Positions 4,859 to 40,977 of a stretch of 64,000 nucleotides of DNA are shown piece after piece. The stretch is from Octopus vulgaris. Lineage: Eukaryota. The notes under the pieces are model-generated. The model saw nothing but the letters and a program-made list of their open reading frames with translations. It was not told the origin of the DNA and did not search any database. The stretch covers positions 91,016,001 through 91,080,000 of the forward strand of contig OX597822.1 of NCBI GenBank assembly GCA_951406725.2. The letters run 5' to 3'. A program made the translations under genes and the position numbers. Numbering within the stretch: the stretch's first letter is position 1; every line of letters starts with the position of its first letter.

Positions 4859-5003
4859 GATGGCGGCGAAGGCAACTTAGGAACTGTAATAGAGCAGAAA
4901 AACTCAAATGGATGGGTCCCAGTGAAATGGGATGTTGGACACACGAACCTCTATCGAGTTGGTTACGACAATAGTTGTGATTTGATTATTGTTGGTCACA
5001 ATT
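4859..5003 (+). CDS. Exon: C-terminal part of a MIB/HERC2 domain
   Basis: ttttag|[48 protein letters not shown]|gtatgt matches the MIB/HERC2 pattern DGG.G..GTV...V.V.WD.G..N.YR.G....DL. Phase 0 to 1. Confidence 0.85.

Positions 5004-40977: not shown

Follow-up and report, generated by a model that had tools for sequence, protein, structure and literature searches.

A MIB/HERC2 domain preceding four CUB domains in a predicted single-pass membrane protein of Octopus vulgaris

Passages of PMC11701565, PMC3673628, PMC11947180, PMC13748646 and bioRxiv 10.1101/2025.07.27.667045 treat the MIB/HERC2 domain as a component of E3 ligases, in which it binds substrates; one in PMC3673628 describes it as promiscuous within the HECT ligases, and one in PMC2394772 counts it among the hubs of animal-specific domain combinations. 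The octopus domain described here belongs to the same sequence family as those of MIB1, MIB2, HERC2 and HECTD1 (PDB 4xi6/4xi7, 3dkm and 2dk3), with which it shares the SH3-like fold and the near-invariant residues. It differs from them in being single, in lying behind a signal peptide-like segment and in having no ZZ, REP, ankyrin, RING or HECT part in the same chain. It also has two cysteines characteristic of its family, one of which stands where the other domains mostly have Y or F.

Below the MIB/HERC2 domain are four CUB domains. CDCP1, SOL-1 and LEV-10 are multi-CUB single-pass proteins, and tandem CUB folds are common to neuropilin, Neto2, Kremen, PCPE-1 and the octopus protein, at 8–24% identity. 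Cubilin CUB5–8 (PDB 3kq4) provides both the best Foldseek match (E = 1.8e-15) and the best CUB profile match (E = 4.9e-12). Unlike these multi-CUB proteins, the octopus protein carries a distal MIB domain and no LDLa, FA58C or MAM module, and the calcium residues appear not to be kept. A precedent for an SH3-type barrel in the secretory pathway is the disulfide-stabilised, luminal SH3-like domain of MIA/OTOR/TANGO1, which belongs to an SH3 family other than MIB/HERC2.

The architecture, new and built of known domains, clearly exemplifies a broader relocation that has apparently drawn little notice. A literature search across mostly open-access papers, in which the spelling with a slash could not be matched, returned nothing on an extracellular MIB domain or on the gene identifiers of the family; the gene may be listed in supplements of octopus transcriptome papers.

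Gene structure and splicing

The window is the whole stretch of 64,000 nucleotides of O. vulgaris contig OX597822.1 that was analysed (G000:C9:91016001-91080000). Used as a query, the last exon matched O. bimaculoides LOC106877781, a protein of 648 residues with MIB_HERC2 and CUB domains; alignment of this protein to the window and the 200 kb upstream of it, with boundaries set at AG..GT sites, located 17 coding exons (Table 1). Fourteen of them lie within the window, where an earlier reading of the sequence alone had counted 11, and three lie about 34.9, 9.1 and 2.9 kb before it. Encoded by these three together are a signal peptide-like segment, residue C25 and the first half of the MIB domain, and the sequence-only reading was right in placing the N-terminal part outside the window. 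The spliced frame is open across 1965 nt and gives 654 residues, of which 646 are identical in O. sinensis XP_029642199.1.

Table 1 Coding exons of the gene and neighbouring features (window positions unless a contig is named)
Feature	Position	Strand	Content
Exon 1	G000:C9:90981137-90981156		Upstream of window
Exon 2	G000:C9:91006941-91006987		Upstream of window
Exon 3	G000:C9:91013089-91013171		Upstream of window
Exon 4	4859..5003	+	MIB/HERC2 second half with C90; phase 0 in, 1 out
Exon 5	6086..6173	+	CUB1 part 1; phase 1>2
Exon 6	12065..12171	+	CUB1 part 2; phase 2>1
Exon 7	14815..14967	+	CUB1 part 3; phase 1>1
Exon 8	16954..17038	+	CUB2 part 1; phase 1>2
Exon 9	19653..19753	+	CUB2 part 2; phase 2>1
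Exon 10	23325..23459	+	CUB2 part 3; phase 1>1
Exon 11	24384..24477	+	CUB3 part 1; phase 1>2
Exon 12	24948..25072	+	CUB3 part 2; phase 2>1
Exon 13	27585..27713	+	CUB3 part 3; phase 1>1
Exon 14	31535..31628	+	CUB4 part 1; phase 1>2
Exon 15	33835..33947	+	CUB4 part 2; phase 2>1
Exon 16	35812..35943	+	CUB4 part 3; phase 1>1
Exon 17	40664..40977	+	S/T-rich stalk, membrane helix, basic stop-transfer residues, 28-residue tail, stop
Alternative last exon	47207..47265, ends approximate	+	Only in public model CAI9728266.1
Repeat remnant	1..450	+	Presumed reverse transcriptase/transposase-like
Repeat remnant	3209..3628	+	Presumed reverse transcriptase/transposase-like
Tandem repeat	5060..5249		Near-perfect, two copies (95 bases); just past MIB exon
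Repeat remnant	9800..10900		Presumed reverse transcriptase/transposase-like; repeat covered by many RNA-type contigs
Tandem repeat	42091..42427		Near-perfect, two copies (167 bases); in likely 3′ UTR
Repeat remnant	43007..44047	+	Presumed reverse transcriptase/transposase-like
Repeat remnant	51997..53650	-	Presumed reverse transcriptase/transposase-like
Ribosomal protein L37a exon	55949..56074	+	Pfam Ribosomal_L37ae, E 6e-19; next gene downstream

Both end exons of the sequence-only reading stood: exon 4 has AG..GT borders and its share of MIB/HERC2 scores 46.9 bits, over the Pfam cut-off, and exon 17 contains stalk, membrane helix, the residues RRR and a stop. The MIB module is made of two exons with phases 1-0-1 and has phase-1 introns at both edges, as had been proposed from the sequence. 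Repeated four times behind it is a CUB cassette of three exons with phases 1-2-1-1. A pseudogene or retrocopy reading of the gene was rejected, the frame being open and spliced.

The gene is real and spliced into RNA, and RNA links the MIB domain to CUB1. Read contigs were mapped for four runs from four studies over positions 4800–12790. The junction 6173>12065 (GT..AG) is found in all four, and segments 4857–5003, 6088–6173 and 12065–12172 are contiguous in single contigs of runs X2 and X6, the splice path being 5003>6086–6173>12065; the 5003>6086 junction is absent from the junction table, and the repeat at 6014–6087 was skipped in mapping. Loose contig ends in X2 and X8 belong to the upstream MIB exon (before 4857) and to the exon at 14815 (behind 12172). 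Spliced contigs join exon 4 to the rest of CUB1 by way of exon 5. The junction 5003>11875 drawn earlier fell away: it omits exon 5 and brings in an in-frame stop, and no contig in the four runs uses position 11875, the depth over 11742–12008 being 0.4, 0, 0.92 and 0.

Searches of the octopus genome itself returned two loci only, both intron-bearing, and the intronless contigs are therefore likely to be RNA. Linkage from CUB1 to the membrane helix is predicted from RefSeq models and from contigs of 2.2–3.5 kb that encode a whole relative of 630–632 residues. At least half of the words of the last exon occur in 20 of the 24 runs listed, none of these 20 being recorded as RNA and 14 being guessed to be RNA; the four mapped runs come from this set.

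Domains, topology and annotation

Residues 1–24 are basic, then hydrophobic, then small, with a 19-residue Kyte–Doolittle mean of 2.23, and only 5/24 to 15/24 of them are identical among full-length relatives. At the same place in all five full-length proteins, a small-x-G/S end with the (−3,−1) cleavage pattern stands before an invariant cysteine; judged by hydropathy and this pattern, the first 24 residues are a predicted cleaved signal peptide. Towards the C terminus is one membrane helix (hydropathy 2.96, placed by the model at residues 605–633), followed by basic residues and the tail. The highest 19-residue mean between the two hydrophobic segments is 1.31, which agrees with the earlier statement that no hydrophobic segment separates MIB from the CUBs and would therefore put MIB on the same side as the CUBs. 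The type-I layout that had been proposed, with MIB/HERC2 on the side of the four CUBs, is supported. We regard the 654-residue architecture of MIB/HERC2, four CUBs, stalk and one helix as nearly certain, and the predicted extracellular location of the MIB and CUB domains as very probable. The protein has 11 N-glycosylation sequons, among them all seven listed from the sequence alone; this excess over chance is not significant (shuffle mean 7.1, p = 0.07). Those at positions 108 and 158 are present in 5/5 full-length proteins.

Spanning approximately residues 33–95, the MIB/HERC2 domain scores 72.7 bits with Pfam PF06701 (cut-off 33.5; E = 2e-20) and retains all of the near-invariant MIB positions. 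Its model adopts an SH3-like fold, with highest similarity to HECTD1 (PDB 3dkm; Z 12.6, r.m.s.d. 2.8, 78 aligned residues), followed by MIB1 (PDB 4xi7; Z 11.4). C25 and C90, which lie in or beside the domain, occur in 5/5 full-length proteins; C90 is present in 7/7 family domains, and the 426 other domains among the matches listed mostly have Y or F there. The pair is a candidate disulfide. Compared with the distant family member P0021, the MIB domain is identical at 43/69 positions and CUB1–4 at 28/112, 30/109, 27/113 and 30/111 (~25–27%). At the octopod level (P0001) the MIB domain is not better kept, with 53/71 positions against 89/115 for CUB1 and 91/109 for CUB2. Identity to the cytosolic MIB domains of this genome amounts to 24–33 of about 60 positions; because unrelated MIB domains are also alike, conservation of the domain is partly a matter of fold constraint.

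The model of the whole protein, of moderate confidence (mean pLDDT 64.5, pTM 0.44), has four β-sandwiches after the MIB domain and then a disordered S/T stalk. CUB profile PF00431 scores 37.6 bits on the whole protein (cut-off 21.4), and the top 22 rows of a wide fold search are all CUB proteins. CUB1 is aligned within tandem matches that begin at residue 100–111, CUB2 resembles C1s CUB2 (Z 11.6), and the models of CUB3 and CUB4, for which P0003, a paralogue from O. sinensis, was used, resemble the CUB domains of Gpr126 (Z 8.8) and Neto2 (Z 8.1), respectively. The order of MIB, CUBs, stalk and membrane helix given by the sequence-only reading is upheld; its 'partial' CUB is not, all four being modelled as whole CUB folds. 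The CUB cysteine pairs, one each in CUB2 and CUB4, are retained in all members having those domains. The calcium-binding subclass of CUB domains is marked by a Tyr-Asp motif followed by a Glu/Asp/Asp acidic triad; compared by eye with cubilin, the acidic calcium residues appear to be missing in CUB1–2, the two domains compared, in weak alignments. Because the profile–profile match between the four repeats is weak (probability 0.1–40%), their common descent is argued from the folds and the phases of the exons. A homodimer prediction for residues 25–322 scored 0.00 against a mark of 0.32 and speaks neither for nor against a dimer.

The public model of the locus, CAI9728266.1, is named 'E3 ubiquitin-protein ligase MIB2'. 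Its first 587 residues are identical to those described here and it shows MIB and CUB matches only; the name, with no ligase domains behind it, bears out the earlier suspicion of a 'MIB2-like' mis-annotation. Mind bomb ligases carry a pair of MIB/HERC2 domains flanking a ZZ finger (the MZM module), followed by ankyrin repeats and C-terminal RING fingers. Here there is one MIB domain, no ZZ finger is found in P0014 or P0011, and parts other than ZZ/MZM cover the entire 654-residue chain. Neither ankyrin repeats nor a RING were found at E ≤ 0.001, in scans in which other MIB proteins do show them. HECT ligases of this kind have a C-terminal HECT domain in more than 2,600 residues, whereas this chain has 654 and ends 28 residues past the helix. 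By these features the protein belongs neither to the Mind bomb ligases nor to the HECT ligases.

In CAI9728266.1, exon 17 is cut short ahead of the membrane helix and the alternative last exon is used instead, which is possibly a secreted isoform or a prediction error. Isoform X2 of O. sinensis is likewise without the helix, and because both models lack it, secreted isoforms may exist. The public models P0006 and P0011 stop before the helix.

Relatives and origin of the MIB cassette

A search of 1.84 billion protein representatives gave 1,680 matches, and the figures given here are from the best 150 of the 1,680: two full-length matches, four family fragments and a remainder matched through MIB alone. 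Among the matches listed, the full-length relatives are those of O. sinensis and O. bimaculoides, a pair of Argonauta proteins whose accession numbers are consecutive, and one cluster (P0021; 10 sequences, ~31% identity, on contigs of 1.7–3.5 kb). The Atlas, which covers clusters of at least 50 only, contained no MIB and CUB cluster, and its leads were all under 0.9.

Elsewhere in this genome is a second copy (G000:C4:96963587-97066303; L002, L035 and L036-L049) that has the same exons, with exon flanks ~72–88% similar. Its MIB exon contains a TGA and its last exon is frameshifted. Its counterpart in O. bimaculoides is intact. The O. sinensis model begins at an internal Met, and the start of P0005 matches intron DNA of this copy.

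Beyond the family, a crude, uncalibrated signal-peptide screen flagged 22 of the 144 non-family MIB proteins among the matches listed, with at least one false positive (P0053); flagged proteins are relied on here only where they also carry extracellular Pfam domains. Twenty-one non-family proteins, picked for signal-peptide or membrane signs, were scanned for domains; six of them have extracellular Pfam domains (SRCR, MAM, Ly6 or PAN/SUEL) beside MIB, and in five of these six a C-terminal membrane helix follows the MIB domain. The apparent ectodomain cases outside the octopus family, all of them predicted gene models, comprise a DMBT1-like sardine protein (XP_062388284.1, P0031; four MIB domains among SRCR domains, then D8C, Ig and a membrane helix), a MAM/SRCR/EGF protein of the calcareous sponge Sycon (XP_065179576.1), a Ly6-like protein of the clam Mactra (KAL4222501.1), a MIB-bearing ectodomain model of the clam Mya (XP_052791386.1), a diplonemid PAN/SUEL protein (P0122), and two further PAN proteins. 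T/P-rich stalks are also among the partners of MIB in secreted-type proteins. The sardine, Sycon, Mactra, Mya and diplonemid models likewise have a signal peptide-like start, with a membrane helix in the sardine, Sycon and diplonemid proteins, but differ from the octopus protein in having 3–8 MIB copies, other partners, no CUB domain and no C25/C90 pair. In 18 further, unflagged top matches no extracellular family passed the cut-off, one CARDB lying just under it.

Because extracellular MIB recurs in unrelated ectodomain models, only the combination of MIB with four CUBs looks lineage-restricted. The proposal of a lineage-specific family is kept for that combination and given up for an extracellular MIB domain as such. 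Five other proteins (P0060, P0137, P0034, P0098 and P0061) have signal- or lipoprotein-like starts and 2–6 MIB domains, and at least some of them look bacterial; P0034 carries a caspase-like domain beside MIB. 'E3 ligase HTD1' is the database name of a clam protein whose start resembles a signal peptide.

Six cytosolic-type MIB domains were found in this genome. The labels MIB1-like and HECTD1-like come from PDB alignments, and HERC2-like and MIB2-like are labels that we presume. The phase-0 intron between Q and D is shared by one of the six, the HERC2-like domain, which is also flanked by phase-1 introns. At the same Q–D site, one clam model carries an insertion of 64 residues, apparently an intron that was read through. 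In the presumed MIB2-like gene (G000:C26, L033/L025), a GC-AG intron apparently divides the second MIB domain at a point four bases away from the Q–D position.

A MIB tree of 56 rows and 67 columns was built, drawing on 11 chosen non-family proteins and one ostracod ligase out of the wider set of 433 domains. The octopus family forms its own branch (92/92), outside a starred branch that contains the HERC2-like and HECTD1-like domains; only the grouping of sardine and HERC2-like domains is starred (98/89). Constraining the family, the sardine domains and the HERC2-like domain to group together gave a likelihood 2.55 higher (p-AU 0.58), and a single clade of all secreted animal MIB domains gave p-AU 0.39; neither is rejected. 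In pairwise comparison the HERC2-like domain and domain 1 of the MIB2-like protein tie, at ranks 45 and 54 of 432. The sardine MIB domains share the HERC2-like leader, and XP_062388284.1 is likely to be an independent vertebrate export of a HERC2-like MIB domain. Because MIB trees of 67 columns cannot name the donor, an origin of the octopus cassette from HERC2 is possible. A two-exon MIB cassette of phases 1-0-1, possibly from HERC2, would have been shuffled in front of the three-exon CUB cassette, which would have multiplied to four.

A broader proposal, to which we give an even chance, is that MIB/HERC2 also serves outside the cell as a recognition module that has gone unnoticed, its cassette probably HERC2-derived and exported more than once in animals, into proteins of the cell surface and secreted ones, with the octopod family a disulfide-locked, single-copy form. 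The proposed cases of export are the cephalopod CUB receptor, the sardine SRCR protein, the clam mucin-like proteins and the sponge MAM protein.

Predicted function

The role that we favour, with a probability of roughly 0.55, is that of a non-catalytic type-I receptor or adhesion protein whose distal MIB barrel is predicted to bind a short motif of a partner. Cleavage of the first 24 residues would leave the MIB and CUB domains luminal and then extracellular, and a C25–C90 disulfide would clamp the barrel at its ends, as an adaptation to an oxidising compartment. The stalk and the four CUBs, which would be glycosylated and are probably calcium-free, would keep the MIB domain at a distance from the membrane. 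A passage in PMC11887331 gives a short Asn-centred motif as the ligand of the MIB1 MZM module, and the surface that grips short motifs in MIB1 would here grip a motif of a secreted or cell-surface protein. The tail, having no catalytic part, may act through adaptors or endocytosis. It contains juxtamembrane cysteines, a kept tyrosine and a hydrophobic C terminus; presumably these are endocytosis or adaptor signals, with a C terminus of PDZ-ligand type.

The company of MIB in secreted-type proteins (SRCR, D8C, MAM, PAN, SUEL lectin, Ly6 and T/P-rich stalks) would also suit a mucosal or immune recognition protein, in which the MIB barrel binds microbial surfaces or glycans and not a host peptide. 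The second copy, intact in O. bimaculoides and broken here, points the same way, such copy turnover being typical of defence genes. Within an immune-expansion paper (PMC8382680), the bivalve gene-family table includes a Mib-herc2 orthogroup, but the entry is annotated to ubiquitination. With only two copies here and two in Argonauta, with no array, and with no sugar-binding role known for MIB, we consider an immune role unlikely.

Instead of engaging a ligand on another cell, the protein could accompany a second membrane protein in cis, as its accessory subunit or luminal escort, in the manner of the CUB proteins Neto, SOL-1 and LEV-10. Members of that class combine tandem CUBs with a single membrane helix and a short tail, features that the octopus protein shares, and Neto2 is among its fold matches. 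These matches, however, are generic CUB matches within the same low range of identity, no LDLa module is present, and the long stalk argues for reach; such a role is distinctly unlikely. Improbable is an arrangement in which binding is left to the CUBs and MIB serves only as a structural cap or spacer: within octopods CUB1–2 are as well kept as MIB, and MIB domains are alike everywhere for reasons of fold, but against the distant P0021 the identity of MIB is more than double that of any CUB, no other domain lies further out, and by eye the CUBs seem to be without the acidic calcium and ligand residues of cubilin. A cytosolic MIB domain, reached through signal-less isoforms or an inverted topology and making the extracellular reading an artefact of gene models, is very improbable, for although three public models (P0002, P0005 and P0013) lack the signal peptide-like start, they are 5′-incomplete or read through intron sequence, the segment is present in five full-length proteins from separate annotations, and neither the CUB cysteine pairs nor two of the sequons vary.

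Proteins are named in databases after the MIB domain. If it also works outside the cell, the 'E3 ligase' names are wrong and counts of invertebrate ligases are inflated. The locus is a clean example, resolved to the exon, of a domain that moves between compartments, and its candidate adaptive cysteines are open to testing. The protein would then be a conserved cephalopod surface protein overlooked so far, and the single-copy octopod case would let the ligand of an extracellular MIB domain be found.
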